Positions 34,846 to 58,214 of a stretch of DNA of 60,520 bases are shown here, piece by piece. Below the pieces are notes generated by a model that was given only the letters and a program-made list of their open reading frames with translations, was not told where the DNA came from and searched no databases. Each line of letters opens with the position of its first letter. The first letter of the stretch is position 1. Source of the stretch: an uncultured virus (IMG/VR IMGVR_UViG_3300036406_001455) (taxonomy: Duplodnaviria; Heunggongvirae; Uroviricota; Caudoviricetes); IMG/VR virus record IMGVR_UViG_3300036406_001455; one strand, written 5' to 3'. The translations under genes were made by a program, and so were the position numbers.

Positions 34846-37122
34846 ATGCCGAAGAACCCCAAGGTTCGCCGCTTCAAGAGCGTGGCCGAGATGCGCCAAG
34901 CGGGCGTACCTGACATCTTCCACAGCGGCGCAGACTCCTGGGGCGTGGGTGGGCAGACGACCATGCTTTACCCATCCGGTGAGCAGCGCCCCTTCCTGAA
35001 GCACTCCGGACACTTTCTGTCCTCCAGCGCCGATAGCACCACGCTCATGTACCGCAAGCGCATCGGCGAGGACGAGGGCGAGTACACCGCCCGCGGTCTC
35101 TACGACATCTGGGGGCGGCGCCGGAACCCCGGGTGGATGCCTGGCTCCTACCAGGCCCAGCGCGACTGGCTGGACAAGGTTGCCGGCGAGGAGTACAAGC
35201 GGCAGCTCGCGGCACACATGAAGAAGGGTCGTTCCCGCTCCACGATGCGCTACAGCGTGCCGGACTGGCAGCAGGATATGGTCGACGCGCTGGGCCTGCC
35301 CGACGAGGACACGTTCAAGGCGCTCAAGCTCAAGTACATATTTGGCGAAGGGCGGAAGAACCCTTCGGCTCGCGTCAAGCCCACGACGGGCACGCACCTT
35401 TCCGCGGGCGACCGTGTTCGCTACTCCGACGAGAAGCTGCGGCACACCGGGCGCCACTTGAAGGCGGGCGCGAAGCTCCGTCGCGGCGTCGTGGAGTCGG
35501 TGGGCGCCTCGACATGGGGCGGACCGGAGTGGGCCGAAGCTGTCGTGCGTTGGGACGATGGGAAGGTGGAGCCCTGGGGCGCCCACCACCTGAGCCGTGC
35601 GAAGAAGAATCCGAGTCGAGGAGCATCCGTGAAGAACCCTTCCGCAAAAGCACACCTGGCCCGCATGCAGCTGGGCGCCTCCATGCTTCGCGAACAGGTC
35701 ACCGCAGCGCAGTCGGCGCTCGCTCGGGGCGACTCCGCTTCCTACCTCTCGTGGCTTGAAAGCCTGCGTGAAGTGTTGGCGCGGGTATCCCAGGATGCGG
35801 CCGATGCGGGACAGCGTGAGACGCCGTACGCCACGGTTGCGCAGGAGACCATGCGGCAACTTCGGAAGGCCCTGATGAAGAAGAACCCTGGCCGCGCCGA
35901 GCGTGCCGAAGCCGCCCACACCCTCTTCGGCGGTCCCCGGCGCAAAGTCACCAAGCGGCTGCTGAAGGGCGAGAACGTGGGTTACAACGGCCTCGCGGTG
36001 AAGGTCGTGAAGTACGGTAAAGATCAAACAGTCGTGGTGGGCACCCGATTCCCGCAGCAGGCGGTCCCGACTTCAGCCATCGAAGACATCAGCGCGCCCG
36101 AGTGGAGCCGTCGATGGGACAAGCAGTTCTGGGGTCCGGAAGGAAAGCCCGACGACCTGAACAACGGCAACCGGCGAACCTACAAGAAGAACCCGGGCTT
36201 CAGCGACTACCTGGCCGCCGGCAAGCGCGCAGCCGCAGGCGCCATAGCCTCCGCCGCCGACTCCGCCCGCACCGCCATCGAGTCGGCCAAGCAGGCAGCC
36301 GCCGAAGAGGCTACCAAGGTGCGCGTGCAGCCTATCACCGAGGATCAGGCCATTCGGTTCCTCGCGAAGTCCCACGGGCTTACGATCACAAACCCCAAGC
36401 GTGGAGAGGTCGACGAGCTTCACGTGCGGTTCAACGGTACCGCTGGCTACCACGCGATGCCTGCAACGCCGGGCAACATGGCCAAGGTCGGCACGGCGGA
36501 GGGCATCGCGTACCTGCGGGAGTGGGGCAAGAAGCTGCTCGGACGCCCCGTCAATGCGATTGACGTGGAGCTGGTCAAGCGCGGCAGTCGCAAGGGCAAG
36601 CGCGTGCTGCTCGTGGACGAGTGGAGCGGTTGGCATACGCGCGCGCTGAACCCGAAGAAGCTGATCCGCCCGGTGCATACGCGCGTTCACGGCACAGATC
36701 AGTACGGGCGGCCCGTGGATACCTACTTCCGTGGTTCCATCGGAGCGCGCATCGCGAAGGACCACGTCGACTACGAGAACTACGACAGCGGCGGGCGGTT
36801 CGACCGCGGGGCGTTGACGCTCGTGCCCCACAAGCCGGCCTCCGCGCTGCGACCCAAGAAGGTGAGCAAGGCCGCGTTCAAGCGCGTAGCGAACCCGTCT
36901 TCGCACATCGGCGACATCATCCGGGTGTACACCGGCCCATCGGCCCTCCACCACACCCCGGGCTTCGAAGCGAACTACCGGGTGCTCGAAGTCAGCAACG
37001 ATCCGGGTCGCGCGCGTAGGCCCATCAAGGTTGCAGCAACGACCAACGATCACGGCAAGAAGGGCGCGGTCCACTGGATCGCCGTGGACCAAATCGTGAA
37101 GGTTGTTCGGAGGGCGAAGTGA
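34846..37122 (+). CDS. NP-motif modular protein 1 (758 aa, 10 NP)
   Basis: Starts MPKNP; RRNP, RKNP, KKNP x3, VKNP, ITNP, ALNP, VANP. Confidence 0.85.
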   Translation: MPKNPKVRRFKSVAEMRQAGVPDIFHSGADSWGVGGQTTMLYPSGEQRPFLKHSGHFLSSSADSTTLMYRKRIGEDEGEYTARGLYDIWGRRRNPGWMPGSYQAQRDWLDKVAGEEYKRQLAAHMKKGRSRSTMRYSVPDWQQDMVDALGLPDEDTFKALKLKYIFGEGRKNPSARVKPTTGTHLSAGDRVRYSDEKLRHTGRHLKAGAKLRRGVVESVGASTWGGPEWAEAVVRWDDGKVEPWGAHHLSRAKKNPSRGASVKNPSAKAHLARMQLGASMLREQVTAAQSALARGDSASYLSWLESLREVLARVSQDAADAGQRETPYATVAQETMRQLRKALMKKNPGRAERAEAAHTLFGGPRRKVTKRLLKGENVGYNGLAVKVVKYGKDQTVVVGTRFPQQAVPTSAIEDISAPEWSRRWDKQFWGPEGKPDDLNNGNRRTYKKNPGFSDYLAAGKRAAAGAIASAADSARTAIESAKQAAAEEATKVRVQPITEDQAIRFLAKSHGLTITNPKRGEVDELHVRFNGTAGYHAMPATPGNMAKVGTAEGIAYLREWGKKLLGRPVNAIDVELVKRGSRKGKRVLLVDEWSGWHTRALNPKKLIRPVHTRVHGTDQYGRPVDTYFRGSIGARIAKDHVDYENYDSGGRFDRGALTLVPHKPASALRPKKVSKAAFKRVANPSSHIGDIIRVYTGPSALHHTPGFEANYRVLEVSNDPGRARRPIKVAATTNDHGKKGAVHWIAVDQIVKVVRRAK

Positions 37123-37907
37123 GCGTCGTACAGTGGGCCGCGCACACCCATCGCGGGTTGAAGCGTTACACGGCGGTCGTGGACGGCACGAAGTACGTGT
37201 TGTTCCAGAACGACGACGGCACGTACAACGTCAACCGGTTTGACAACGACGGCGGGCCTGGGAAGCTCGTTGGCAAGTCGTACATGTACGGCCTCGCGGA
37301 AGCGAAGCGGGTCGCGTTGGGTCAAGTGCCGAAGCGCAACCCGGAGCAGTATGCGTGGGTTACGCAGTACATGGATCAACTGCCGCGCCACAACGACGTG
37401 CGCGACGCCATGAAGCCCATCTACCACCACGTCGTAAACAGCCATATGACCAGCATCACGCCCGCCATGCTGCGTAACGTGGTTCGCGCGGCTGAGCGCA
37501 TCCGAGCGGAGACGCGCGCCCACGGGTTCATGGACAACCAGACCACGGCCGCGTGGCCTGTGATCGAACAGGTCGAACTGGCTGCCGGGCGGGAGTTGAA
37601 GCGCCAGGACAACTGGCGGCACGGCGCCAAGAGCAACCCCAAGCGCTCGGTCAAGCGCCCGCAGGCCAAGCGCAACCCGATGGACAAGCCCACCTACGAC
37701 GCCGGTCTGAAGCGCGCCAAGCAGATTGGCATCGACAACGCCGAAACTGCCTTGGATCAGCGGAAGGCATACCCATCGGTGCGCGCAGCTTACGCAGCGT
37801 TCATCGTCAACGCAATTGACACGGTGAACGAACAGCGGCTGCCCGGTCGGGAGGTCGCCGTGCAGGCATTCTTGGATCACGTCGCCAAGCCAAAGAGGAA
37901 GAAGTGA
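37119..37907 (+). CDS. NP-motif modular protein 2 (3 NP)
   Basis: KRNP, KSNP, KRNP. Confidence 0.8.
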   Translation: MSVVQWAAHTHRGLKRYTAVVDGTKYVLFQNDDGTYNVNRFDNDGGPGKLVGKSYMYGLAEAKRVALGQVPKRNPEQYAWVTQYMDQLPRHNDVRDAMKPIYHHVVNSHMTSITPAMLRNVVRAAERIRAETRAHGFMDNQTTAAWPVIEQVELAAGRELKRQDNWRHGAKSNPKRSVKRPQAKRNPMDKPTYDAGLKRAKQIGIDNAETALDQRKAYPSVRAAYAAFIVNAIDTVNEQRLPGREVAVQAFLDHVAKPKRKK

Positions 37908-40048
37908 TGAATCGCCACGATGAACACGGCCGCAGGTTCGCTCACGGCTACAAGGAAACATGGCCAACGTCGTCGTACGTGTCGACAGAAGCCGTGCGCT
38001 CCGACTACCTGCTCGCGCACAAGCAAAGTGATGCGGAAGGCGCAGCGTTGCAGGCCAAGGAACTCCGCGCGCGCGGCGCGGCGGTCCCCCGACTGCGCAA
38101 GAACCCGTCTCGCCCCGCACCCGCCAACGCGGTGTTCTTCGCAACCACGAAGGGCGATGGGCACCAGATCATCGTCACGCCTCACGACGCAGAATCCTAC
38201 GATTTCGGCGTCTACTCCGGTGGCGACAAGTGGTGGGATGGCCTGCTGGACGCGGACGCGGTGCGAAAGAGCATCGCGCTGGAGCTTCCAAACCAGAAGT
38301 ACGTGGTCAAGGTCGACAAGCTGGCCCAGAGCAACCCTCGGCGGAAGAGTTACCCCGAGAACCGATGGGTGAAGATCAACGGTCTGGACGCGATCAGGCA
38401 CGGCGCCACGCTATACCATGTGGAGCCGCATTTGGGTCGCTGGATGGTGTTCAGCGTTCCGCTGGGGCCTGACGGGTTCGCGACGACCACCACGTACGCG
38501 CATCTCGGCACGTACGCGGATCGGAAGGCCGCCAAGCGATCAGTCGGCCCCGCCACGCGGCTGAGCGGCGCCAAGAGCAACCCCCAGCTCGTCACGTCGC
38601 TTCCCGGCTGGCGCCAGTTGGAAGTCGGTTACGGGCGCACGGCTTGGCTGCCCGTCGGCAACTACGCGATTATCATGAAGCACGTAGATCGTGATGGCAC
38701 GCCGGCTTACCACGTCATGGTCGACGGGCGCTTCAAGCGCGCTTGGGGCACGCTGAAGGGCGCTCAGAAGTGGGCGGCTGAGCAGTTTGGCGCGGCCAAG
38801 AGCAACCCCAGCGCGCTCGTCCTCACGCTCACGGACCAGCACGGCCGCCCCGTGCAACTGCCCTGGCGCACCGTGAAGGACGGGCGTCCGGGTAACGAAA
38901 GCATCGCACTGCGCGCATCGTTCTACACGGACCCCAACGACGCCACCCGTGAGTGGGTTTCCGGGTCGATTACCCGTGACGGCAAGGTGGTCGCAACGTG
39001 GCCTCGGCCCATGCGCGCAGGGAAGACGGTCGCGAACCCCCGTTACGCATCTGGCCCCTACGTCGAGAAGATCAAGCTCCCGGGCTGGAACGGCAAGACA
39101 AGCCTTGAGCACGCCTCCGCGCCCCGCGTCCGGGCAGCGTTCCCCGGCGCCGACCACGCAGCAGCCATCGAGAAGGCCATCGTCCACGCCAACGCCGCCG
39201 CTCGGGCCTACAACCGCACGATGAAGGCCGCCATCGCCAAGCACGGTGATCCACATCCATGGATCAGCGGCATCGGCAGCGAGAGCTTCCCCGACGCCAC
39301 GAAGAAGCTCCTGCGGAAGCAGCTCGATGCGTTCAACCGCGCCCAGGACGCTGTCGCGCTGCACTACAAGGCGACGGGCAAGCGCACGCCGCTCCACAAG
39401 TCCGAGTACGCGCATCGGCTCGTGAAGGCCGGGGGCTACGGGCTCGGGTCGACGAAAAGCAATCCAAAGCGCAATCCAGCAGGCTATGTTGCCAGCCAAC
39501 TCGTAGCACGCGCCGGGCGGATTCACTCCGACTTTGGAACCGGCCCAACGCGCTGGGTCGTAAGTTTGTCGGCGCCATTCAAGCACGACAAGCGCTTGAA
39601 CTGGGGCGTGGAAGGCCAGGGTGACACGGACGACCAAGCCATCCAGCGGCTGCGCGCCGACGCCATGAATCATGGCTACGACCTCCCGCCGGCAGCGCTG
39701 TTGCTCGTACGCCGCGCAGTCATGCACGCGGTTACGTCGGGCAAGGGTCACGGTGAAGTTCGAGCGGGGCCCGCGGCGAAGCGAAACCCCACCCCCTTCT
39801 ACGGCGCACCCATGGGCTACGGTAGTCGCTCTGAAGCTCCCGACACCACGACCACCCTCCTCGTTCGGCGTGTGAAGCTCGACAGTGGCGGATACGCGTC
39901 GGACGGTGCCTACTTCGGCATCGGCCGCCCAGTCTACGTGGTCACGAACGCAGACACTGGCTCGGTGGTAGAGTCTCTGCGCGCAGCCGACTTCGTGGAC
40001 GCGAAAGAGAAGATGCGCAGCAAGTACCCCAACGCGAAGGTGAAGTGA
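37904..40048 (+). CDS. NP-motif modular protein 3 (714 aa, 8 NP)
   Basis: RKNP, QSNP, KSNP x3, VANP, KRNP x2. Confidence 0.85.
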   Translation: MMNRHDEHGRRFAHGYKETWPTSSYVSTEAVRSDYLLAHKQSDAEGAALQAKELRARGAAVPRLRKNPSRPAPANAVFFATTKGDGHQIIVTPHDAESYDFGVYSGGDKWWDGLLDADAVRKSIALELPNQKYVVKVDKLAQSNPRRKSYPENRWVKINGLDAIRHGATLYHVEPHLGRWMVFSVPLGPDGFATTTTYAHLGTYADRKAAKRSVGPATRLSGAKSNPQLVTSLPGWRQLEVGYGRTAWLPVGNYAIIMKHVDRDGTPAYHVMVDGRFKRAWGTLKGAQKWAAEQFGAAKSNPSALVLTLTDQHGRPVQLPWRTVKDGRPGNESIALRASFYTDPNDATREWVSGSITRDGKVVATWPRPMRAGKTVANPRYASGPYVEKIKLPGWNGKTSLEHASAPRVRAAFPGADHAAAIEKAIVHANAAARAYNRTMKAAIAKHGDPHPWISGIGSESFPDATKKLLRKQLDAFNRAQDAVALHYKATGKRTPLHKSEYAHRLVKAGGYGLGSTKSNPKRNPAGYVASQLVARAGRIHSDFGTGPTRWVVSLSAPFKHDKRLNWGVEGQGDTDDQAIQRLRADAMNHGYDLPPAALLLVRRAVMHAVTSGKGHGEVRAGPAAKRNPTPFYGAPMGYGSRSEAPDTTTTLLVRRVKLDSGGYASDGAYFGIGRPVYVVTNADTGSVVESLRAADFVDAKEKMRSKYPNAKVK

Positions 40049-41016
40049 TGGCAGCCTGGACCGCAACTACGCTTGGTGGCATGAAGCAGTGGCGTTGCCG
40101 CGATAGTCGTGGGGCGTTCCGCATCGTCCACTGGTCGCCGAAGGCACCGAGCGTTTATCGCGCACAGACTATTGGTGTGGATGGCAAGCTGCGGACACTC
40201 GGCCAGGCGGCTACGCTCGCGGCGGCGAAGGCGCTGACTGGCGGGGCAAAGACCAACCCAAGGATCAACTGGGCCAAGTCATGGCGCCCGCAGGAGCGCC
40301 CAGATACCGACATCGAGCGGTTCATCTCTACCGCGCGCGCCGAGCGGGCGCTGCTGGGGCGCAAGCAGCATACGCCAGAACAGGAGGCAGCGCTGCGCCT
40401 CACGGCAAAGACCAATCCCAAGGCGCCGAAGCCCCTCTCGAAGAAGGCGCTCGACAAGGTGATCGAACAGCTGTACTACAAGCACGCATCTGGCCTCCAG
40501 ATCAACATCATGGACATTGGGAAGGTGTTCAAGATGGGCGAGCAGGCGTACGCTGCTGGTGGTGACGTGGAGCAGGCGGTGAAAGACGCCATCAAGCTCT
40601 ACTGCGTCAAGGGAAACCCGAAGAAGAACCCCGGAGACCGGCGTAACCCCGCGATCAACGCGTCTGCCGTGCTCGCAGGCTACCTCGAAGCCGCGCTCTG
40701 GTCCTCGACCAATGAAGACACGGGCGAACCGCTGGACCGCGACTTCTCCGTGTCCGACATCAAGGGCAAGACCCTCGCCAAGCTCAAGGGCCACGTGACC
40801 AAGTTCCTCGCCGCAGCAAAGGGTCTGGACTTGTCCGGATACCGCGCATCTCAAGTGGGCCACGACCTGTGGCTGACGCAGAACGGCCACGGCGCCGGCT
40901 TCTGGGATGGCGACTACGAAGATCCGCCGGGGCTCGGGTACAAGCTGGATCGCATCGCGAAGTTCTTGGGCGAGGTCAATCTGTACGTCGGTGACGACGG
41001 CAAACTCTACGTGTAG
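40045..41016 (+). CDS. NP-motif modular protein 4 (5 NP)
   Basis: KTNP x2, KGNPKKNPGDRRNP; last module has GHDLWLTQNGHGAGFWDG. Confidence 0.85.
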   Translation: MMAAWTATTLGGMKQWRCRDSRGAFRIVHWSPKAPSVYRAQTIGVDGKLRTLGQAATLAAAKALTGGAKTNPRINWAKSWRPQERPDTDIERFISTARAERALLGRKQHTPEQEAALRLTAKTNPKAPKPLSKKALDKVIEQLYYKHASGLQINIMDIGKVFKMGEQAYAAGGDVEQAVKDAIKLYCVKGNPKKNPGDRRNPAINASAVLAGYLEAALWSSTNEDTGEPLDRDFSVSDIKGKTLAKLKGHVTKFLAAAKGLDLSGYRASQVGHDLWLTQNGHGAGFWDGDYEDPPGLGYKLDRIAKFLGEVNLYVGDDGKLYV

Positions 41017-41022
41017 GTGCTC

Positions 41023-42783
41023 ATGCCAAAGACCATCGACATCATGTACCTCGTGCCTGCGGCCTATCGCGGGCGCATGGTCTACGGCAACGGGTTCGCG
41101 GCGAGCGACAATCTGGAGCCGTGGGAAGAGAAGGACATCAAGGAGCAGTTGGAAGACTGCCAGGAGCTTCGTGGCGCGTTTGTTGACGTGCTGCGCAACA
41201 TCGCACCGCGCCCGGGTAACCGGGTCTACAAGACAGTCATTCGCGTGACTCCATCGAGGACGAAGACCATGAAGAATCCGATACGTGGCGCTGGCATGAA
41301 CGCTCGTGGCGGTTGGCGACACGCCACCGGCTCTGGCGTCTGGCTGGTCAAGTACGCCAGCGGCCCCAGCTTCCAGATCGTCCGTGACGGGGCGCTGTAC
41401 GATTTGTCGCAGGGTCGATGGAGCACCAAGGCGGACTCCTTCAAGTCGGCGATCAACCTCGGGCGGTACAAGACGCTGAGCGAAGCGCAGATGGCGGCAC
41501 ACTCGGCGCGCTCTCGATGGCGTCTCGGCCGCCGGGCCAACCCCGGGCCGGTGAGCATCACGGCAACCTACAAGGCATCCGACATGGGCATGCACCCCGT
41601 GCTTGACCAGGCGCTCGAACTGGCCAATCAACTCAAGGGTCTGCCCGTACCCTACGTCGCGACGCGTGTGCTTCAGCTCGGAGGACCGGCGCGCGCTTCC
41701 GTCGGCCTCTCGCTGAGTTTCGATCCAAAGGAGAGTTGGCCCAACGGCATCTTCGAGAACAGCCGTCACGCGAAGTTCTCGGTGAACCCGGAAGACGGAA
41801 CCATCGAGCAGCTGACCGGCTGGAAGGTGAACAAGTTCCGCAAGGCTCGCTTCAAGTCCTCTCGCGAGGCGTTGCAGAAGCTGGCAGCCTGGATTCAGAC
41901 GGCCACCAGCACCGTGAAGCAGAACCCGAAGTACGCGGACGCCAGCGGCCACAAGTTCAAGGTCGGCGAAGAGCACTTCAGCCCTTCATGGTCGGATGCG
42001 CGGCTCAGGAAGGAGGTAGCGTTCGCCCGAGACACCGGGGACAGCGCAATGCAAGCCCTCATCCGTGCCGAGCAGTCGAACCGCAGGGGCAAGAATCCGA
42101 TTTCGCTCTCCGGCGCCGAAGCCCAGTGGCGCAGGTTCGCAGACAAGGCCAGCAGCCTGCTTGACGGGATCAGCAAGGACTTGCGCATCGGCCACATGGT
42201 GGACGGCTCCGTGTTCACCCCGGTGCGCAGCTACCTGACCAGCCTGGAGGAGTGCGTTGTCGCGCTCAAGGCGGGGCGCAACAAGGAAGCCTCAGCGGCA
42301 TCCGCGAAGCTCCGCAACCTCGAAGGGCGGCTCATGAAGCTGGGCGTCAAGCGCAACCCCGCCAAGGCGGGCGACCTGTACGATTACGAGACGGCGAACT
42401 ACCTGCGCCGGGCTACCGCAGCAGAGACTCGGGAATCAGTCGAGGCGTCCAAGCACGACGGGGGTGCAGGGGCAATCCGAGTCGATGGGCGGACCTGCTA
42501 CGTGATCCCAGAAACTCGTACCAAGAAGCGAAACCCCGCAGCCGACAAGCCATGGGCGCTCGCCAAGAAGAGCGGCTGGGACGACATCGTGGTGGGCATG
42601 TACGAAACTCGCGAGGACGCTGAAGCTGCGCTCCGGAAGAAGGCCCGGTACCGCCCGGAGCACGGAGACACGCCCCAGAGCGTGGGCTACATCATCGCAA
42701 AGACGGGTCGGGGCACACCGGGCAAGGCGTACTACAGCGTGATATCGTTCGATGGCAAGAAGCAGCTTCGGATCAACACCTGA
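41023..42783 (+). CDS. NP-motif modular protein 5 (7 NP)
   Basis: MKNP, RANP, KQNP, GKNP, KRNP x2, one internal SVNP. Confidence 0.85.
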   Translation: MPKTIDIMYLVPAAYRGRMVYGNGFAASDNLEPWEEKDIKEQLEDCQELRGAFVDVLRNIAPRPGNRVYKTVIRVTPSRTKTMKNPIRGAGMNARGGWRHATGSGVWLVKYASGPSFQIVRDGALYDLSQGRWSTKADSFKSAINLGRYKTLSEAQMAAHSARSRWRLGRRANPGPVSITATYKASDMGMHPVLDQALELANQLKGLPVPYVATRVLQLGGPARASVGLSLSFDPKESWPNGIFENSRHAKFSVNPEDGTIEQLTGWKVNKFRKARFKSSREALQKLAAWIQTATSTVKQNPKYADASGHKFKVGEEHFSPSWSDARLRKEVAFARDTGDSAMQALIRAEQSNRRGKNPISLSGAEAQWRRFADKASSLLDGISKDLRIGHMVDGSVFTPVRSYLTSLEECVVALKAGRNKEASAASAKLRNLEGRLMKLGVKRNPAKAGDLYDYETANYLRRATAAETRESVEASKHDGGAGAIRVDGRTCYVIPETRTKKRNPAADKPWALAKKSGWDDIVVGMYETREDAEAALRKKARYRPEHGDTPQSVGYIIAKTGRGTPGKAYYSVISFDGKKQLRINT

Positions 42784-43730
42784 TGAATCGCCCATCGAAG
42801 CGAAACCCCGCATCCTTCGCAAAGGGCACACGCGTCCAGCTCCGTAAGGATCACTGGACCGGCTTCGGCACCCGTGGGGGCGTAGCCGAAGGCTCCACAG
42901 GGGCTTTCGCCAACTACAACCACCGAACCTATGTCCGTTTCGACGACGGAACCTACGTGGACGTGGACACGCGCGCCCTCGAACCCGAACGCAAGAGCAA
43001 CCCCATGAAAAATCCTCGCGGCTTCCTCTCCTACGCCGTTACCTTCTCCCCCATCAGCATCGCTGACACCGCCACGGTGAAGCGCGCCGTGGAGCGCTGG
43101 GGCGGCAAGCTCAAGGGCAACACCGCGACCTTCCCGAACGCCGCCGATGCAGCCCAGGCCGCGCAGATGGCCAAGGCGTACGGTATCGAGGCGCGCAAGG
43201 CGAACCCGGGTACCCTCGCCGAACGTGTGCAATCCGAGCGCAGCGCCAACGCCGCGGTGAAGATTGCGATGGACATCCGACGTGACTGGTACGACTACGA
43301 AGACAACCCCCAGGCGCTTCGCGGCCCGCTCGCGGTGCTGGACCAGGCCGTCAAGGAGGCTCGCGCCACCTTCCCGGGTGCGGCGTGGACGGGCACCAAG
43401 GGGCCGGCGCTCAAGCAGAAGATCGCGAATGCCGCAGCGGTGCTCAAAGATGCACGGGCGCTGGTGAAGCACGGTCGCAAGGCCAACCCCGCCAAGCGCA
43501 ACCCTGTCTCTTTGACCGACATGGCCAAGCAGATCGGTGAGGCGACTGCGTGGGACTACTCGTTCGAGCCGACCACGGACTACGCCATGATCGACGACAA
43601 CTGCAACACGAGCATTTCGTTCGAAGATGGCACGGCCGAGGTGGTGAATCTCGACACGGGCGACTACAAGGAAGTCAAGCCCAACGTTGCGGCCATCGTG
43701 CGTGCGCTTCGCAAACTTTCCCCGGTGTAG
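42783..43730 (+). CDS. NP-motif modular protein 6 (7 NP)
   Basis: KRNP, KSNPMKNP, KANP, KANPAKRNP, one EDNP. Confidence 0.85.
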   Translation: MNRPSKRNPASFAKGTRVQLRKDHWTGFGTRGGVAEGSTGAFANYNHRTYVRFDDGTYVDVDTRALEPERKSNPMKNPRGFLSYAVTFSPISIADTATVKRAVERWGGKLKGNTATFPNAADAAQAAQMAKAYGIEARKANPGTLAERVQSERSANAAVKIAMDIRRDWYDYEDNPQALRGPLAVLDQAVKEARATFPGAAWTGTKGPALKQKIANAAAVLKDARALVKHGRKANPAKRNPVSLTDMAKQIGEATAWDYSFEPTTDYAMIDDNCNTSISFEDGTAEVVNLDTGDYKEVKPNVAAIVRALRKLSPV

Positions 43731-43731
43731 C

Positions 43732-47715: not shown

Positions 47716-47717
47716 CA

Positions 47718-48752: not shown

Positions 48753-48767
48753 AGCATCGCCGGAGTG

Positions 48768-49070: not shown

Positions 49071-49150
49071 TCCTGCTCTATATCATAGTTCTATACAACA
49101 GGCAAACACGATCTATTGCGCCCCACCGCATCGTGGTTAGCCTCGCTTCC

Positions 49151-50170: not shown

Positions 50171-50541
50171 TCGAGTTGCCCGAGTTCATGAATGGCCGCC
50201 TGGTCGAGCGCACCTACGCCCGCGCCATGGCTCTGCAAAACATGGGGGACCGGGATGCCTATGCCCGGAGGATCATGGAGCAGGGCCTGCGCCGCGCTCG
50301 TGCTCGTGACGCGCGGACACTGCTCTTCTTGGAGAAGGGCACGGACTACCTGCAACATCGCAACGACGAGCAGAAGTCGCGCTTTGCGCAGGAAGGGCAC
50401 GAGGGCCAAAACTACGAGTTCACCGAGTTCGGCACGTGGCGTGAAGCATACCTGCTCATGATGGAGCCCAACGCGCACGCCGATGTGAAGATGGAGGTGT
50501 TTCGCTGGGTGTACGCCGCGGTGGCCGAAGCGCTGCTGTAG
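50167..50541 (+). CDS. Hypothetical protein
   Basis: ATGA-coupled, GGAG SD. Confidence 0.6.
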   Translation: MIELPEFMNGRLVERTYARAMALQNMGDRDAYARRIMEQGLRRARARDARTLLFLEKGTDYLQHRNDEQKSRFAQEGHEGQNYEFTEFGTWREAYLLMMEPNAHADVKMEVFRWVYAAVAEALL

Positions 50542-50583
50542 GTCCATGTACTGTCAGGCGCGCCCAAACTTGATGGGCTCCTC

Positions 50584-50613
50584 TTGACAGCGACCCGCAT
50601 TCCAGAGTAGCTT
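50584..50613 (+). promoter_or_regulatory. Sigma70-like promoter TTGACA-N18-TAGCTT
   Basis: Upstream of AGGAG and ATG 50658; heads the second NP block. Confidence 0.55.
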
Positions 50614-50657
50614 CATCGTGGGCGCCGAGTCGTTGCAACACAGGAGCAACGACGGGC

Positions 50658-52094
50658 ATGACTTTCTTCAACTTCATCGGGTTCGGCGACAACGGCGACC
50701 TTGGCCGCCGCCAGAAGAATGCCTCCGGGATGCGTGCGCTGAAGCAGCGACACGACAAGCTGCTCGCGGACTGGAATCGGCTCAAGCTGGCGGCGGCTCA
50801 CGCCCCGCTGTGGGAGAAGCCCCAGCGTTACGCCGAGGCCCGAAAGGTCAGCGGCCAGCTCATCGCGGTACGCAAGAAGATGGAAGCCGTGAAACGCGCC
50901 GCCCGCTCCGGGCGGCGTGGCGGTGCGGGGAACAACGCGCCGCAGCCGCTCAAGACGCGGCTGCAGGCCCTGTTGTCGCCCACCCAGGAGGTGCCGGGCG
51001 ACGTGGTGGAGAACGAGGACTCGACGGCCGGGCTGGGCGCTGCCCCGAGCCCCTTCGCCATCCAGCAGAAGATCGACACGCTTCTGAAGATGCGCGACGC
51101 GTCGCTACGCGCCGAAGCGAACTACCGGCGGCTTGCGAGCGCTGAGGTGGCGCGCAAGGGGCTGCTCTGGGAGGTCCGGTACAAGGACTTGATGCAGAAG
51201 GCCGCACGGTCCGCCGCGAATGCACGTAAGCGGGCCAACGAAATCGCTCAGCTGCGCATGCGCCAGCGTGCGTCCACGGTCAAGCCGCTCTCGACGCCGG
51301 TTCGCGACACGGTGGTGGCCGCGTACAACAAGCACAAGACGATTACATCGCCCTACCGCCCGCCAGGCGCGACGGTACACCCGGTGACGCGTGAGTGGCT
51401 CAAGGTACCCGACGTGATGGAGAAGGCCATCGTCACGCAGAGCACCGCGCCCACGCTGTTCCGGCACTACGACGGGCTCCTGCGCAAGCACGACGGCCGC
51501 ATGAGTCCGGAGGTCCGCGCGCGCTTCATCAGGCGTCGCGCACTGGCAGCGCAGCTCGCCCGGCTGCAGGCCCGCGCGCAGGGCGAGGCGTTCGTCCCCT
51601 CGGCTGCGCGCACCGTTCCCACGGCCAACGCCACGCTGCTGGCACAGATCGCTGAGCAGCGTGCTCGGTTCGAACGCGCCCGTCGCGCCAAGAACTACGC
51701 GGAGTCCACGCGCACCGCCGAAATCATCTCGAAGCTGGAAGCCCAGCTGCGTGCACTCCAGAGCCAGCAACAGGTCGCGCCCACGGTCGCCGATGTCCCT
51801 GTGTCACCGCCCCAGGTGCCTTACAGCCCGCTGGCACCAGTGGAATACACCGCGGCCAAGCTGGCGCCCCCGGGGGCCTCGGCCGAGGCAGACGCCGACG
51901 CCGTGACGGACGCGGACGCGGCTACCGACACCTACGACACCGAAGACACCGACATCGCCCCGACGCCCTGGTACAAGAGCCCCTTCGCCATTGTGGGAGG
52001 AATCGCAGCCATCGCGGTTGCAGCAATCTACGCAAGGGGGCAGAAGGGAAAGAAGGGTCAGGGTGGCGGTACGCACTCCGCGGCGCACACCTGA
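50658..52094 (+). CDS. Basic helical protein with C-terminal membrane anchor, putative virion protein
   Basis: PWYKSPFAIVGGIAAIAVAAIYARGQKGKK. Confidence 0.8.
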   Translation: MTFFNFIGFGDNGDLGRRQKNASGMRALKQRHDKLLADWNRLKLAAAHAPLWEKPQRYAEARKVSGQLIAVRKKMEAVKRAARSGRRGGAGNNAPQPLKTRLQALLSPTQEVPGDVVENEDSTAGLGAAPSPFAIQQKIDTLLKMRDASLRAEANYRRLASAEVARKGLLWEVRYKDLMQKAARSAANARKRANEIAQLRMRQRASTVKPLSTPVRDTVVAAYNKHKTITSPYRPPGATVHPVTREWLKVPDVMEKAIVTQSTAPTLFRHYDGLLRKHDGRMSPEVRARFIRRRALAAQLARLQARAQGEAFVPSAARTVPTANATLLAQIAEQRARFERARRAKNYAESTRTAEIISKLEAQLRALQSQQQVAPTVADVPVSPPQVPYSPLAPVEYTAAKLAPPGASAEADADAVTDADAATDTYDTEDTDIAPTPWYKSPFAIVGGIAAIAVAAIYARGQKGKKGQGGGTHSAAHT

Positions 52095-52110
52095 CAGGTA
52101 GGAGTCGATC

Positions 52111-52353
52111 ATGTGGAGCTTGCTTACCGATCTCGCGGGAACGGCCAACAAGGGAATCAAGGCAGCCATCGCCAGCTACCGCCCGGGGTGCACCCCCGGC
52201 GACATGTCGGTGGTCATCCTCGGACACATCAAGGGTTGGGAGCCCAAGTACAAGGACCAGCCCGTGCTGACGCAGGGACTCCGGGTCAAGCTGGCTGGTG
52301 CGCTTGGCGAACTGGCATTCAACCTCGCGGTCATCGACGCGAAAAAGGGGTAG
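52111..52353 (+). CDS. Small hypothetical protein
   Basis: AGGAG SD, 80 aa. Confidence 0.65.
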   Translation: MWSLLTDLAGTANKGIKAAIASYRPGCTPGDMSVVILGHIKGWEPKYKDQPVLTQGLRVKLAGALGELAFNLAVIDAKKG

Positions 52354-52354
52354 C

Positions 52355-53701
52355 ATGAAGCGCCGCATCCAGAACCACGCACAGGCTGACATCCAGAGGC
52401 AGCTTTCGCTTGCTGGCCAGGCGGTCAAGGAAGCGAACGCCATCTATCGCCGCGGGGGCGAGCCCCAGGCATTGGACATGCTTCAGCGTTTGCTGTTCCG
52501 GATGGGGGCGCTCAACGCCATCGCCACGGACTCGACGGTGTCCAGCGGCAGCCACCTGTGGATGCGCGTGCAGGGCGCGCAGTCCGCTGTGGGCGATGCC
52601 ATCGACAAGATGCGTCGCACCGCCGGGGTGGTCGCGCCTCGGGAGCGCTACTACAAGGCACCGGGCGTCAAGCTCAGGGGCGAGTTGAAGCGCGAAGTGC
52701 GACTCCAATCCCGCGTCGCCAACCCGGCGGCGTTGGACTTCCCTGTAGCCATGATCGAAGACACCAAGGCCACGGGGTTGTGGGTAGACCGCCACGGGCA
52801 GCCGCGCCACCCGCTCAACGCCAACTTCACGGTCCACGGCCCGTTCAAGGACGGCCAACCCCACCCGAAGGCCGTAGCCGCCCAGGCGCGCGTGGCGGCC
52901 ATCGTAACCGAGCACCAGGCCCGCGACGGTGGTTCGAAGCCGACGGATGATGCGATCGACGCGTTGACCCGGGCGCTGTTGAAAGCACGAGTGATGGGCA
53001 CCGACAGCCAGATCGAGCGCTTCGCCAAGCAGGCGCTCAAAGCCAAGAAGAACCCGCGGACCGGCGCGAGCAAGCGCAAAGCCGCGCGCGTGTCCAATCC
53101 GGACATCTTCGCGTACACCGACGTGAACAAGTACCTCAAGGCCGTGAAGGCGGAGCGGCGCAAGGCACTCAAGGGCACCCGCATCGTGTGGGACGTGGGT
53201 AGCGTCGGTGGTGTGAAGACGTGGACTGGCCACGCGCACGGCGCAATGGTCATAATCTACGCGCCGTACGGCGGCAGCGATCTGTACCAAGTCTACGCGG
53301 CGAAACAGGGCAAGGGTCATGGAGAGCACTTCTCCAACGCCAAGAGCATCGCTGAAGCGAAGCGGGTGGGCGTGGAAGCCGCCGGGTACTACGGCGGTGT
53401 GGCGTCCAACGCCATGGGCAAGATGAAGACCAACCCGAAACTGCCGGTGAAGGCCGGCAGCTTCGATGCACCGGTAAAGCACCGCAGCGGGTGGGGGTAC
53501 TACCGCCTGACGCAGCGCCGTGACGACGGTGCGCTGGACAAGGGGGCGACGTTCTACGCCCCGGACGACGACGCCGCTCGGGCGTACGTCCCCAAGTGCG
53601 TGTACGACGGCTCGCAAGCTGTGCGCCTCGAACGCGCCCGACCCTACGACACCGAGCGCTCTCAGGCAGCATGGACCGCAAAGTATCGAGGTGCACGATG
53701 A
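52355..53701 (+). CDS. NP-motif modular protein 10 (4 NP)
   Basis: VANP, KKNP, VSNP, KTNP. Confidence 0.8.
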   Translation: MKRRIQNHAQADIQRQLSLAGQAVKEANAIYRRGGEPQALDMLQRLLFRMGALNAIATDSTVSSGSHLWMRVQGAQSAVGDAIDKMRRTAGVVAPRERYYKAPGVKLRGELKREVRLQSRVANPAALDFPVAMIEDTKATGLWVDRHGQPRHPLNANFTVHGPFKDGQPHPKAVAAQARVAAIVTEHQARDGGSKPTDDAIDALTRALLKARVMGTDSQIERFAKQALKAKKNPRTGASKRKAARVSNPDIFAYTDVNKYLKAVKAERRKALKGTRIVWDVGSVGGVKTWTGHAHGAMVIIYAPYGGSDLYQVYAAKQGKGHGEHFSNAKSIAEAKRVGVEAAGYYGGVASNAMGKMKTNPKLPVKAGSFDAPVKHRSGWGYYRLTQRRDDGALDKGATFYAPDDDAARAYVPKCVYDGSQAVRLERARPYDTERSQAAWTAKYRGAR

Positions 53702-55023
53702 GGCCGCGCCGTAATCCCGAAGGCCACATCCCGCCGAAGACGTGGCTGAAGCTCGTGGGCGCGTTGCAAGACGCCCGTGCAGCAGGCAATCAGTGGGTTG
53801 CCGCGGGCAAGCCGCGCCCCAGCCCGCTCTACGACACGTTCAATCGGGCCGACCGCGAACTTCTCCGTATGGAGGAGGAGGCGCGGTGGCCCTACAACGG
53901 AAGCCCCGAGCAGCGGAAGGAGTGGTCCTACTGGCAGCGCCACTACGACACCAAGGAGAACCCTGCGAGGGGCGCGCGCGTGTCGAACCCGGGCGCATGG
54001 GTGGATGGCGACACCACCTCAGTGATGTCGCAGGGGCACCATGGCCGCATCCTGGTCACGAACGTCAAGCGCTACGTGGACCGCTGGGTTGTGGAGCCGA
54101 AGAAGGGCTGGTATGCCATCTACGTCCATGACGAACCCGCGGCTGGCGGGGGCAAGCAGCCCACCACGCTCGGCAACGCGGGGCCGTACACCACACGCGG
54201 CGCTGCCAAGGCGGCAGGTACGCGGCGCTGGAAGACGTGGGGCAGCGCCAGCCCGCTCCGGAACCCCAGGGCCGCGGGCAAGCGCCCCGGCGACCCGTTC
54301 GCAGCCGTTCGTCGCGCCGCCGCCAAGGAAGCCCAGCGCTTCGTGGTCGAGGGGCCGGCGCCCACCTCGAAGCGCTATGGCAGCTCCTGGGGCAAGGTCA
54401 TCGACTCGGCCTACAAAGTCTACGAGAAGCATCGGATCGAGAGCGGCGTGTTGCTCCCGGTCGACGATGTTGTAGCCGAAATCCGTGCAATCCGCGAACG
54501 TGCGGAGAGCGACCGCCGCGCGAAGAACGAGAAGGAAAGCCTGGAGGCCGAACGCGAGTACCGGTACCAGCAGTTCCAGAAGGACAGGGCCTCCCCGTAT
54601 CGGAACCCGAAGACCGCGCGCTGGCAGGACATGCAGGTCTCGCCCGACTACTACGTGGGCGGTGACGGCAGTTCGTGGAACGTGTTCAACGGCGGGGTGC
54701 CCATCAGCGTGCATCGCACGCGTGCGGACGCTGAAGCGCACTTCCGTCGCGTGTTCCCTGCGCAGACGCTCCATGTGTACTCGAACGGTAGGTGGCTCAC
54801 CGGTCAGCCAGCGGGCGTGAACACCTGGCAGCAGGTGGACGCCGCGAAGAAGCGCCAGGCCAAGAACCCCGGGAAGGTGTTCAGGGTTCGCGCCATGGTT
54901 CCTGGAGCCGCGTCCTGCATCGTGTCGACTCACGCCACGCGGCAGCGCGCGAACGCGGCCGCGCGAAAGCACAAGAAGGGGCACCCGCACCTGCGGGTCT
55001 ACGTTGCGGAGTCCGCCGCATGA
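53698..55023 (+). CDS. NP-motif modular protein 11 (6 NP)
   Basis: MRPRRNP, KENP, VSNP, LRNP, YRNP, AKNP. Confidence 0.85.
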   Translation: MRPRRNPEGHIPPKTWLKLVGALQDARAAGNQWVAAGKPRPSPLYDTFNRADRELLRMEEEARWPYNGSPEQRKEWSYWQRHYDTKENPARGARVSNPGAWVDGDTTSVMSQGHHGRILVTNVKRYVDRWVVEPKKGWYAIYVHDEPAAGGGKQPTTLGNAGPYTTRGAAKAAGTRRWKTWGSASPLRNPRAAGKRPGDPFAAVRRAAAKEAQRFVVEGPAPTSKRYGSSWGKVIDSAYKVYEKHRIESGVLLPVDDVVAEIRAIRERAESDRRAKNEKESLEAEREYRYQQFQKDRASPYRNPKTARWQDMQVSPDYYVGGDGSSWNVFNGGVPISVHRTRADAEAHFRRVFPAQTLHVYSNGRWLTGQPAGVNTWQQVDAAKKRQAKNPGKVFRVRAMVPGAASCIVSTHATRQRANAAARKHKKGHPHLRVYVAESAA

Positions 55024-55580
55024 AGCCCTACAAGCACGCCACCGAAGTCCAAACGCTGATATTCGACGCCGACCTGTACACGGTCAAGCGTGCGAAGGCG
55101 TGGGCGCGTGCGCACAAGTTTCGCTACGGCTCCGTAGACGAAAAGCCGAACACCATCCGGCTGCGTCAGCACGATCCAAGCGAGTATCGCCCGAGCACCT
55201 TCCGGACCATCGCGCTGGGCGACGGGGGCGTGAAGGCTGTGGTTGGCGTGCCACTCCGTGCCGCAGCGGCCACTCGGCCAGCAGGCTACGACTCCCGGGG
55301 GCCGCGGGCGAACCCTCACGTCTCTACCAGCCGTGCTCGGGGTATCGTAAAGCTGGCCGCCAAGGGCGCACGGCTGAAATCCATCAAGAGCTGGCTTACG
55401 CTCGACGAACGCGGCACCTGGGAACAGACAGCACGCAAGATGGTCGAATCCACCGCCGAGCGTGCCGCCGAACTGAACCTGACCGACGCGCAGGTAGATG
55501 AGCAGATTGCCATCATGCTCCGCCTGCAAGCCACCGAAGCCATGCTGCGCGACGCCAAGAAGCGCGAGGGGAAGCGATGA
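55020..55580 (+). CDS. NP-motif protein 12 (1 NP)
   Basis: Module VQTLIFD...AKAWARAH...RLRQHDP...FRTI..GVKAVVG, then RANP. Confidence 0.75.
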   Translation: MKPYKHATEVQTLIFDADLYTVKRAKAWARAHKFRYGSVDEKPNTIRLRQHDPSEYRPSTFRTIALGDGGVKAVVGVPLRAAAATRPAGYDSRGPRANPHVSTSRARGIVKLAAKGARLKSIKSWLTLDERGTWEQTARKMVESTAERAAELNLTDAQVDEQIAIMLRLQATEAMLRDAKKREGKR

Positions 55581-56581
55581 CCCAAGATACGGACCACTGG
55601 CTCCTCGTGCTCGTGTCAACCATGCCCGACGGCTATCGCCGCGCGGACGCGGATAGGCGCGTAAACGGATCACGCGAGCAGGCAAAGACCGTGGCGCAGC
55701 GTTGGGCTGACGACCAAATTCATGCGCAGCACGACGGCTGGCGCTACCACGTGGACGCCTACGACTATGTGCAATGGCGGGAGTCCAACAACCCGCGGCC
55801 GCTGTTCACCGTGAAGCCGTCCAAGGCGCGCGCGGCGGCTGCCGACAAGGCGTACCGCGCGGAGGAAGCCCGGCGTTCCCACGATTGGGATACCTATTTC
55901 AAGCTCACGAAGGCGCACAAGAAGAACCCGCGCCGTGTCGCACCTGATGCGGTTTACGCGGACCAAGACCCGATTTCGAAGAACTGGCTCGTACGCGTGG
56001 TGGAAGGGCAGCGCCACGTCGCGGTCACCGACGATTGGTACGCTTCGAAGGCTGCGGCGGAGCGTGAAGCTCAGCGTGTGCGAGGCTTGGTACGCGGCGG
56101 CATGACCGCGAGTCAGGTAGGCAGCGAGCTGCATCGCGGCGCTCACAAGAAGAACCCGCGCCGTGTCGCCGTGGGCGCCCGGGTCCAGGACGAGTACGGC
56201 AACCTCGGCGTGGTCGAGGAGGCGCCCAAGCACCGGGGCGCCCATTACTGGGTGCAGTTCCCCGAGGGCCGCGCCTTCCTGCGCCCGTCCGAGTTGAAGC
56301 CCGTGCGCAAAAAGAACCCGTTCACCGGTAACGGCTGGACCGAGGAGAAAGCGTGGATACTCGCGGCGAAGGCAACCCCGCCCACGCCGTTCGGCGCCGC
56401 TCGCGCCGACGCCATCATTGCAGCGGCACGCAAGGGCGCCAGCGGGCCGTGGAGCGACCGGCTTACGCGGGTGATGTCCAAGGGCGAGTACGCCTACGTG
56501 GATCGCTTGTGGGCCACGATGCCGGGTAGCTACTCGTTCGTGAACACGTTGAACCACATCGCCCAAGGCGCCAAGCCATGA
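55577..56581 (+). CDS. NP-motif modular protein 13 (4 NP)
   Basis: HKKNPRRVA x2, RKKNP, SNNP. Confidence 0.8.
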   Translation: MTQDTDHWLLVLVSTMPDGYRRADADRRVNGSREQAKTVAQRWADDQIHAQHDGWRYHVDAYDYVQWRESNNPRPLFTVKPSKARAAAADKAYRAEEARRSHDWDTYFKLTKAHKKNPRRVAPDAVYADQDPISKNWLVRVVEGQRHVAVTDDWYASKAAAEREAQRVRGLVRGGMTASQVGSELHRGAHKKNPRRVAVGARVQDEYGNLGVVEEAPKHRGAHYWVQFPEGRAFLRPSELKPVRKKNPFTGNGWTEEKAWILAAKATPPTPFGAARADAIIAAARKGASGPWSDRLTRVMSKGEYAYVDRLWATMPGSYSFVNTLNHIAQGAKP

Positions 56582-57630
56582 AGCGCAACCCTTCCGCTCG
56601 CGATACGTTCAACCGGGCGCATCGGGCGCAGCGGGCGTGGACCACACGCCGCATCACCATGTCGGAGTACGACGCCGCAACTCGCCCGTTGAGCGCAGCG
56701 GTCAGCGCGGCTGAGTCGGCTCATCGGCAGTGGCGCACAGACGTGCCGATGCGCCTCGCGTGGAAGCGATACGAGGATGGCACGCACACCGCCTACCTCG
56801 GGGGCGGAACCTCCGTGGACGTGATGCCCGCCCCGCCCTTCATGACCCAGCGCGGATATGTGGTGGTGATCGACTCGCTCGGCATCGGTGGTGCTCCGCG
56901 GTACATCGAGCGCTCGGGCAGCAGCAACTACGGCACCGTAGGTCGTGACGACAACCGCGTGTTCGCGACCGTCGCCGAAGCCAAGCTGGCGGCAGCCCGC
57001 TACTTGCTCAAACGTCACCGGAGCATCGCTGGGCGCTCCACGGGCGAGCACCTGGGCGCCATCGAGCGAAAGCGGAACCCGAAGCGGAACCCGATGGAGG
57101 TCGACTTCATCCGCCGGCTCCCTGCGCTTGTGATCGTAGGAGCCAAGGGCAATCTTCTGCATGACGCGGTAGTCAAGGCTTACGCGGACTACTACGACTA
57201 CGAGCTGCCGCGACTTCGCATTGTGGTGACCGGTGCAGAGGGCCACACGCCGATGCAGATCGCCAGCGCCATTCACCGGAAGGTGTTGGCCGACGGCCGT
57301 GCAGGTGCACGGGCGAACCCTGGGAACGGGGCGCTCGTGCCCACCGTAGGCACCTTCTTGACTGTGCTCAAGTCCAAGCTCGTGCAGCACGACGAGAAGG
57401 AGAACCGGAAGCACTTCAACCTGTACCGTCTCGGGCACTATCTTCGCGCTGCCGAAGGGGTCCAAGCCAAGGTGAAGGCCCGCATCGACAAGTCGGACGC
57501 AGCCAGCTTCGAGCGGCTGAAGGCGGCCATCGCTGAACACTTCACGCTTCCGTTCTCGCCGGCCAGCGCAACGATTCGACAGATCGACGCGTACATGGCT
57601 ACCGGCAAAGCCCCATCCCTCACCAAGTAG
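56578..57630 (+). CDS. NP-motif modular protein 14 (4 NP)
   Basis: MKRNP, KRNPKRNPM, RANP. Confidence 0.8.
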   Translation: MKRNPSARDTFNRAHRAQRAWTTRRITMSEYDAATRPLSAAVSAAESAHRQWRTDVPMRLAWKRYEDGTHTAYLGGGTSVDVMPAPPFMTQRGYVVVIDSLGIGGAPRYIERSGSSNYGTVGRDDNRVFATVAEAKLAAARYLLKRHRSIAGRSTGEHLGAIERKRNPKRNPMEVDFIRRLPALVIVGAKGNLLHDAVVKAYADYYDYELPRLRIVVTGAEGHTPMQIASAIHRKVLADGRAGARANPGNGALVPTVGTFLTVLKSKLVQHDEKENRKHFNLYRLGHYLRAAEGVQAKVKARIDKSDAASFERLKAAIAEHFTLPFSPASATIRQIDAYMATGKAPSLTK

Positions 57631-57647
57631 CTTCAAGGCGGTACGTC

Positions 57648-58214
57648 ATGCCCATCTCTGCCGATGACAAGGTGATTCACGCTTTCCTCGACGCGCGCCC
57701 CGCGTCGTCTCGCAAGCTCACGTCCACCGGAAGCCGTCTCGACGGCAACTGGATGGGTGGCACGGGCATCGCCGAGTGGAGCAGCCGCGGACGCATCCAC
57801 CTGTTCGACCAGGGCAGCAAGGCCGCGCAGACCGTGCAGAGGAAGATCGCGCGTATCGCGCCCCGGAACTGGTTCGAGCCCACCAGCGAGTGGATTCTGC
57901 CGAAGCAGAAGCGCGTGACGAATCCCGTTGCCCGTCCGTACCGCGCCTCGGTGGAGAGCTTCGCCGCACGGGAAATCAAGGCGATGACCGAGCGCAACGC
58001 CCACGGCGATGCGCTGCTCTACGTGGTGCGCAACGTCTTGCGTTCGCCGGTGCTCACCGAGAAGGTGCAAGCCATCAACCGGGAGCACATGCGCATTGGG
58101 TACATGCCCCATGATCTCTCTACGGAGCGCTACCGCATCTACAAGGTGGCGATGCGCCAACTTCAACGCCGCGCCAGCAAGGCGGAGTACGAAGCGGTCT
58201 ACGGCGCCACGTAA
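57648..58214 (+). CDS. NP-motif protein 15 (1 NP)
   Basis: KRVTNP separates two roughly 95-aa halves. Confidence 0.75.
   Translation: MPISADDKVIHAFLDARPASSRKLTSTGSRLDGNWMGGTGIAEWSSRGRIHLFDQGSKAAQTVQRKIARIAPRNWFEPTSEWILPKQKRVTNPVARPYRASVESFAAREIKAMTERNAHGDALLYVVRNVLRSPVLTEKVQAINREHMRIGYMPHDLSTERYRIYKVAMRQLQRRASKAEYEAVYGAT

Follow-up and report, generated by a model that had tools for sequence, protein, structure and literature searches.

Polyvalent proteins, described by Iyer et al. (2017, PMC5512222), carry disparate domains in a single mobile-element polypeptide, and the order of their domains is shuffled between relatives. The authors proposed that these proteins are delivered together with DNA and that their domains are released by proteolysis through embedded peptidases, and drew an analogy to polyproteins made by RNA viruses of eukaryotes; they also cited the Dar proteins of phage P1, which are internal proteins targeted to the capsid. 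In this study, we analyzed a 60,520-nucleotide stretch of DNA from an uncultured virus of the Caudoviricetes (IMG/VR record IMGVR_UViG_3300036406_001455), hereafter the window. Two blocks of plus-strand genes in the window, block A (34846-47715, 10 open reading frames (ORFs)) and block B (52355-58214, 6 ORFs), encode proteins punctuated by a [KR]-[KRSAT]-N-P motif, designated here as the joint. The two blocks are very probably 'beads-on-a-string' arrays, in which small (approximately 50-150 aa), mostly unrelated whole accessory proteins are joined by this motif.

As in polyvalent proteins, several unrelated domains were found in one phage polypeptide, as indicated by a structural model, free-standing homologues, mutually unrelated segments, and the phage-like context. 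In contrast, the hallmark domains of polyvalent proteins (embedded metallopeptidase, ArdC-N, helicases, SNF2/methylases, and LPD families) were not detected by Pfam or PHROGs. The resemblance to polyvalent proteins suggested in a preliminary description of the sequence was thus acceptable as an analogy, but did not extend to the hallmark domains. The array modules were tiny and almost all without a known family, and 15 such proteins were encoded side by side. Furthermore, they shared a conserved four-residue delimiter; none is described in the accessible text of PMC5512222, where the word 'linker' occurs 0 times. The logic of fused domains was therefore common to both systems, whereas the universal four-residue delimiter, the tiny modules, and the 15-gene array were additional features of the arrays. 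No description of such a delimiter was found in open-access papers and preprints, in agreement with the earlier statement that no described system with it was known.

The products of eukaryotic viral polyproteins and of multi-copy prohormones are all made in equal amounts, and their junctions serve cleavage. To our knowledge, polyprotein strategies are rare in bacteria. The arrays resembled these precursors in having heterologous units and a short junction conserved independently of the units, although the host here is bacterial and no protease domain was detected in the array proteins by Pfam or PHROGs. Asparagine peptide lyases cut themselves at Asn-Pro in a specific folded environment, as in NPTH of FlhB/YscU and N42-P43 of reovirus mu1. 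The invariant pair of the joint is likewise Asn-Pro, but the joints were predicted to be disordered rather than part of a folded loop, and NPTH was absent among the 225 NP sites of the array proteins and their relatives. T4 internal proteins are late-made accessory proteins that are loaded in heads and injected. The likeness of the arrays to the T4 internal proteins and to the P1 Dar proteins was in concept only; no sequence likeness was found, and no capsid or scaffold gene was recognized in the window.

Enrichment of Asn-Pro in the array proteins

The NP dipeptide was present in 15 of the 16 array ORFs, which encode 6,236 aa in total, consistent with the previously noticed array of 15 modular proteins in two tightly coupled blocks. 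There were 74 NP in the array proteins, while 11.7 were expected from the composition (2,000 within-protein shuffles; mean 11.7, standard deviation 3.3, maximum 23). The count of about 74 in the preliminary description was reproduced, along with the absence of NP in the helicase (9917-11827) and the two NP in the 850-aa coiled-coil protein, and the comparison with the composition-matched null confirmed a strong excess. The enrichment was more pronounced for [KR]xNP, which occurred 45 times against 1.9 ± 1.4 in the shuffles (maximum 9). Pro followed 35% of all Asn in the array proteins, and NP was the sole strongly enriched dipeptide (z = 18, with a runner-up of z = 4). Another 48 candidate ORFs in the window (10,448 aa), used as a control, contained 24 NP against 16.7 expected, and only four [KR]xNP.

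The consensus of the joint in the window proteins and 24 relatives was [GA][GA][RAP]-[KR]-[KRSAT]-N-P-[KRSAG]. A basic residue was located at positions -3 to -1 in 64 of the 74 NP, and the remaining approximately 10 corresponded to the chance expectation for incidental NP. The choice of codons for the joint did not differ from the background: Asn was encoded by AAC 63 times and AAT 11 times (122 and 17 times, respectively, elsewhere in the array genes), and Pro by CCG (33), CCC (25), CCT (12), and CCA (4), near the usage in the same genes. The codons at -1 and -2 were variable. In addition, the word AAYCC was found 74 times in the reading frame, but only nine and five times in the other two frames and 17 times on the opposite strand of the blocks. 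As the codons of the joint followed the background and AAYCC was frame-specific, the joint is selected as a peptide and not as DNA. These findings agreed with the preliminary description, which had argued for peptide selection from codon variety.

All 16 array ORFs were tightly coupled and showed a codon-position GC pattern consistent with coding. Their starts are our own calls; for the ORFs starting at 37904 and 40045, database gene calls suggested a true start 3 nt downstream at ATG (P0001, 713 aa, and P0006, N-terminus MAAW, respectively). Block A starts with g1 (34846-37122, 758 aa), which contains 10 NP, begins with MPKNP, and matched no Pfam or PHROG family, followed by g2 (37119-37907, 262 aa, three NP) and g3 (37904-40048, 714 aa, eight NP). 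In g4 (40045-41016, 323 aa, five NP), the triple joint KGNPKKNPGDRRNP is located immediately N-terminal to a phrog_1915 domain (residues 207-322). The next protein, g5 (41017-42783, 588 aa, seven NP), matches phrog_3308 at residues 226-294. The block continues with g6 (42783-43730, 315 aa, seven NP, N-terminus MNRPSKRNP), g7 (43732-45663, 643 aa, seven NP, N-terminus MAKAKLVQRNP), and g8 (45666-46478, 270 aa, two NP); g9 (46463-46759, 98 aa) is a lone small ORF without NP, and g10 (46759-47715, 318 aa, five NP) begins with MRKNP. Block B is composed of g11 (52355-53701, 448 aa, four NP), g12 (53698-55023, 441 aa, six NP, N-terminus MRPRRNP), g13 (55020-55580, 186 aa, one NP), g14 (55577-56581, 334 aa, four NP including three KKNP), g15 (56578-57630, 350 aa, four NP, N-terminus MKRNP), and g16 (57648-58214, 188 aa, one NP). 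Pfam detected no family in the 16 proteins; PHROGs gave a weak HNH match and, apart from it, only three families, all of unknown function. Every form of the motif quoted previously was present, whether at the N-terminus (MPKNP, MRKNP, MKRNP, and MRPRRNP), in tandem (KSNPKRNP and that of g4), or followed by Met (KRNPMDK, KRNPMSR, and KRNPMEV).

Joints as borders of small independent modules

The spacing between the joints was bimodal. Among 90 inter-motif segments, 18 were 15 aa or shorter, corresponding to tandem joints, and all but one of the others were 46-163 aa, with a mode at 76-90 aa. Only one segment of 16-44 aa was observed, when compared with 23.7 ± 3.8 for random placement (minimum 12). 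Bulky hydrophobic residues were depleted only at about -5 to +3 around the joint, and the linkers are therefore minimal. The 72 segments of at least 25 aa had no detectable relationship to each other in blastp (best E-value 0.003), which agreed with the previous remark that the array products share little beyond the motif.

We then compared 42 NP-rich proteins with 225 NP in total, consisting of the 16 window proteins and 26 relatives that were all found via g3 or g12. The ends of high-scoring segment pairs (HSPs) were located within 6 aa of a joint or a terminus in 62% of 616 cases, compared with 17% for randomly placed HSPs, and the median distance was 4 aa instead of 22 aa. A single module without an internal joint was covered by 102 of the 154 HSPs, and the alignment covered less than 70% of the shorter protein in 144 of the 147 related pairs. 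Within alignments of 56% mean identity, N and P of the joint were identical in 70% and 80% of the cases, respectively, while positions -4 to -1 and +2 to +3 showed only 28-44% identity; 57 of 81 internal NP were kept as NP. The joint was found in the first 15 residues of 14 of the 42 proteins (6/16 in the window and 8/26 in the relatives), but in the last 15 residues of only three (1/16 and 2/26). Adjacent tandem pairs of joints numbered 11 in the window and 27 in the relatives. The same module could occupy an internal position after K-x-N-P and, in a different protein, the first position after M-R-K-N-P (g3/P0002/P0016). This N-terminal bias and the occurrence of the same module at internal or first positions behind a joint suggested that the joint belongs to the front of the module. 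The array proteins were net basic (K+R 16.5%, D+E 10.2%), as were the flanks of the joint.

The exchange of modules was seen with relatives of g3 and g12. A word-based search with g3 identified seven relatives, each sharing 14-64% of g3 at 50-87% identity, and the alignments began and ended at joints. The protein P0006 was composed of g4's first module, one new module, the g3 module 526-629, and the remainder of g4. In block B, the search with g12 identified one orthologue of 87% identity, in which all six NP were kept despite insertions and deletions in adjacent linkers, and two further proteins that had only the module 99-190 in common with g12, located directly after NP as their last module.

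An exhaustive profile-free search with g3 gave 269 matches, of which 150 were listed. The g3 module 630-714 (of the 'YGAPMGR...GGYDxGGAYWG...YPxA' type) had at least 86 free-standing homologues of 160 aa or shorter, and the module 380-521 had at least 15. When the ends of these small proteins were projected on g3, their medians deviated from the module borders by only -8/+1 aa for 630-714 and -4/-9 aa for 380-521. Among the matches listed, [KR]xNP was found in five of the 86 and none of the 15 free-standing homologues, respectively, while the long matches (250 aa or longer) were NP-rich in nearly every case. In Klebsiella phages and mycobacteriophages, the phrog_1915 domain of g4 was encoded by a small ORF of its own. 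The earlier proposal that whole small genes were fused behind the motif thus applied literally to the two g3 modules with free-standing homologues.

The region 380-714 of g3 was modeled by AlphaFold2 using a checked 39-row alignment, for which 38 of the 150 listed matches were chosen in a balanced manner. The model contained three folded domains with a mean predicted local distance difference test (pLDDT) score of 76, and the segments with pLDDT below 50 (134-149 and 236-257 in the model) contained all three joints (141-142, 145-146, and 249-250). NP sites inside folded domains had been named beforehand as evidence that would speak against a delimiter. The motif-type sites of the g3 model were outside the folded domains, whereas at least one incidental NP without basic flanks (SVNPED, residue 257 of g5) fell inside the phrog_3308 domain match. 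Foldseek with the three-module model as one query found no PDB match at E ≤ 0.001, and the search with module 630-714 in a protein atlas detected only low-confidence structural neighbors below the threshold of that search.

Spacing, HSP borders, and the model linkers agreed that the joint lies between and before small independent units, as had been described. It is very probable that the joint is a very short exposed linker at the front of each bead, and that the beads are swapped between relatives at the joints.

Three other multi-module proteins that share the module 380-521, namely P0021, P0022, and P0060, lacked NP joints. Asn-centered strings recurred in these proteins (MRANV, MRSNAG, and ENPRKNV in P0021; EPNARKN[VI] in P0022 and P0060), and [KRM][KRSAE]N[PGAVT] was more frequent than in shuffled sequences in P0021 and P0022. 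They may use a different 'basic-x-Asn-x' delimiter, although this is suggestive in two of them and weak.

Genomic context of the arrays and related viruses

The window was phage-like, encoding an SNF2 helicase, a DUF3987 primase-like protein, an Amidase_2 endolysin, a NUDIX protein, and a phrog_1735 protein, while no structural gene was recognizable in the window or in the relatives. Directly upstream of block A, a gene at 33743-34843 on the plus strand encodes a Cys-His protein of the transglutaminase fold. This gene belongs to the core shared by the wider virus group and was found in 22 IMG/VR loci. A conserved small protein is encoded at 49948-50541 (+) in the window. Its homologue was located only approximately 1-2 kb from the transglutaminase-like gene in five loci (L006-L010), but the two genes are 15 kb apart in the window. 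This difference indicated an insertion that comprises block A, the lysozyme-like gene following it, and a few small ORFs.

The pattern AARMRSAAYCCN occurred 23 times on the forward strand of the window, but only 0-5 times in each relative record of 41-137 kb. One 73-kb relative record showed only a two-fold overall excess of NP (53 vs 24.6). NP-bordered modules were also present in L004, L007, and L009. The N-terminal module of g13 had a homologue with NP on both sides in L009, and another behind NP as the last module in L007. The 9.6-kb locus L004 was the sole locus with an NP-rich ORF near the transglutaminase-like gene. Searches of DNA collections detected no relatives of the NP proteins (viral contigs with g14 and g3, metagenome contigs with the module alignment, and genome contigs with g3). 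In tblastn against named phages, g3 and the transglutaminase-like protein had no match, and g4 matched via its C-terminal domain only. For one replication-side gene, the best relative among named phages was Rhizobium phage B1VFA; the first 50 kb of this phage consisted of ordinary small genes, with one reverse-strand ORF containing three NP.

None of the 31 proteins encoded around the transglutaminase-like gene in L008 and L012 had a PHROG match. L008 is part of a 73-kb record with terminal repeats (the record of L026-L029), in which Pfam families were assigned to nine of the 21 proteins scanned, mostly of replication type, and no capsid, portal, or terminase was recognizable. The absence of PHROG matches and the small number of Pfam families indicated a very divergent phage group. 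The stretch occurred in 24 sequencing runs labeled as lake water metagenome, with no RNA run listed among those containing it. Taken together, the arrays are, with high confidence, lineage-specific insertions in a conserved plus-strand operon of a deeply divergent lake-water phage.

Several proteins of the related viruses had an Arg-rich N-terminal region with R-x-N-[PGA] repeats (L008:17862-19289, L010:9583-11100, L009:14211-15524, L012:18652-19578, and L019:13512-14171). Those of L008-L010 continued with a hydrophobic stretch and glycine repeats of the GAIGQGFG type, and those of L012 and L019 with hydrophobic stretches and other tails. Within this virus group, the role of the basic-x-Asn motif may be a wider one.

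Transglutaminase-fold enzyme upstream of block A

The product of 33743-34843 matched the transglutaminase core (PF01841, E = 1.4e-9), and databases contained 120 relatives, encoded on contigs as long as 233 kb. DCDD, His226, and Glu245 were invariant in the family, and a membrane helix was present in the C-terminal part. The structural model had a confident core, and the fold matched a putative cysteine protease (3isr), TglA, LapG, the pseudomurein isopeptidases PeiP and PeiW, PNGase, and TgpA. In the window protein, the membrane helix is followed by a basic tail with RVRNP. NP was found at this tail only in the window copy and the two closest homologues (IKNP and KKNP), and in none of the 37 more distant aligned ones. 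As the sole nearby peptidase-like enzyme, this protein is a weak candidate for a protease acting on the arrays. Its distribution and neighbors may fit a role in lysis or entry at least equally well.

Possible functions of the joint

The junction was conserved independently of the heterologous domains flanking it, from which we infer a separate function for the joint itself. Tentatively, the joint may be a processing site and the strings polyproteins, an explanation ranked first because the strings share with polyproteins their heterologous units, their minimal linkers, and one universal junction, kept amid changing surroundings. The strings would then be translated as polyproteins and cut at or beside Asn-Pro, releasing dozens of mini-proteins in fixed amounts, all with the same kind of N-terminus. 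The cutting would be performed by a protease in trans, of phage or host, or, less likely, by the Asn-Pro bond itself through Asn cyclization. A more elaborate version, in which about 60 mini-proteins in 15 strings are freed at a universal K-x-N|P, either through self-cleavage or by a protease whose specificity is new, with the joints as the seams of cassette swapping, is rather doubtful. Several points weigh against cleavage. X-Pro bonds are poor substrates for most endopeptidases, a joint 3-5 residues after the initiator Met would free nothing, and tandem joints would yield tetrapeptides only. The joint was also present in the basic tail of the transglutaminase-like protein and in the Arg-rich regions of proteins of related viruses, which fits a binding motif better. 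Neither Pfam nor PHROGs detected a peptidase domain in the 16 array proteins. Regarding the transglutaminase-like gene, it was conserved in relatives with few joints and adjoined an amidase gene in one of them, and its product resembled phage cell-wall isopeptidases as much as proteases.

Another explanation, ranked a close second because joints favor the N-terminus, come in tandem copies, have basic flanks, and recur in other proteins of the clade, is that the joint is a docking or targeting tag before each module, which binds a common partner while the strings are handled or packaged uncut. Opening joints in 14 of the 42 proteins against three closing ones, the frequent tandem joints, and the net basic proteins are all in line with such a tag, as are the tail of the transglutaminase-like protein, limited to the window copy and its two closest homologues, and the R-x-N-[PG] in the Arg-rich N-terminal regions of hydrophobic proteins. 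The arrays are also located in an operon that, in one relative, contains the genes of no recognized identity, which are presumably late. The partner could be a virion or packaging component, a chaperone, or a nucleic acid, the last bound through a basic turn similar to SPKK or AT-hook motifs; since no structural gene was recognized in the window or relatives, a 'virion' partner is conjecture. A docking tag by itself gives no reason for fusing whole proteins, and we regard this explanation as unlikely. It is improbable, in turn, that the joint is passive, with uncut multi-domain proteins in which K-x-N-P is only a preferred linker that came along with the cassettes and is flexible or breaks or caps helices. 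Such a linker would agree with the very short joints predicted to be disordered, with the NP that starts a helix in the g3 model (from model residue 146, the Pro), and with the ability of phage polyvalent proteins to act unprocessed, as given in PMC5512222. However, a plain linker need not stay conserved while neighboring positions change, nor be kept before first modules or repeated in tandem, and the same two residues were kept between dozens of unrelated domain pairs at approximately 50% protein identity.

The exchange of modules at the joints could also point to a signal in the DNA, the joint-coding sequence being a recombination site or microhomology for cassette shuffling and the peptide a by-product. 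This is very improbable in view of the background codon variation (four codons in use for Pro and both for Asn, with those at -1 and -2 also varying) and of the frame and strand specificity of AAYCC, of which only about five bases are fixed. Metagenome contigs from four runs covered 34846-54800, in short pieces, and gave no clear breakpoints at joints; one weak breakpoint (side 20) was not at a joint, and among the loose contig ends listed, 35125 and 42365 were at or 5 nt from an NP codon, but the others were not. Recoding or peptide-bond skipping of the 2A type, or a sortase-type sorting signal, which have only NP in common with the joint, are scarcely credible. The 2A/StopGo pattern D[VI]ExNPGP had no match, and NPGP occurred at one of the 74 window sites and none of the 151 sites in relatives. 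The sortase B sorting signal, NP[QK][TS][NGS], lies near the C-terminus of its substrates; it was absent among the 225 NP sites.

If the joint is a signal for processing or docking, it would be a four-residue, domain-independent handle for managing dozens of unrelated small proteins at once. This would represent a new way for a phage to organize its accessory or counter-defense genes, and the joint might become a useful tool, as a linker that can be cleaved or docked. If cut, the arrays would correspond, on the prokaryotic side, to the polyproteins of eukaryotic viruses, and the joint would be a natural portable 'cut here' tag. The joints also provide a parsing rule, by which about 6 kb of 'dark' array protein sequence can be divided into roughly 70 natural domains, each suitable for separate expression and testing. 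The arrays show cassette exchange among protein modules rather than genes, in a virus group almost wholly unrecognizable to current family libraries.

Other genes in the window

Directly after block A and outside the array, the plus-strand ORF 47718-48332 encodes a lysozyme/SLT-like protein with a hydrophobic C-terminal stretch. By visual inspection, a hydrophobic C-terminal helix resembling a membrane anchor was found in this protein, in the 478-aa coiled protein encoded at 50658-52094, and in the transglutaminase-like protein. These C-terminal anchors beside the arrays may hint at a membrane-associated step of lysis, entry, or assembly.

The phrog_1735 protein (518 aa, E = 5e-90) is encoded at 7708-9264 on the minus strand and had 526 matching phage records, including those of Rhizobium phages B1VFA and RHph_X66 (approximately 41% identity), Bacillus phage SP-15, Pseudomonas M6-like phages, and Salmonella and Klebsiella phages. 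Several of these phages carry hypermodified thymidine, and the window phage may also modify its DNA.

Repetitive sequences were observed at two sites. The plus-strand ORF 24734-25930 consisted mostly of the tandem peptide repeats KPKVE, APEPAP/SAEAP, and KAPKEAKI, encoded by DNA repeats of 12-54 nt, with tandem repeats located at 24964-25649. A 12/18-nt tandem array of approximately 24 copies was located at 3061-3352, where the plus strand reads (PS)n-HR and the ORFs on the minus strand look more gene-like. The 850-aa coiled-coil protein mentioned above is encoded at 26343-28895 on the plus strand and has an acidic N-terminus followed by a very long, helix-like stretch rich in E, R, and K. The relatives L005 and L008 encode weakly conserved counterparts upstream of the transglutaminase-like gene.

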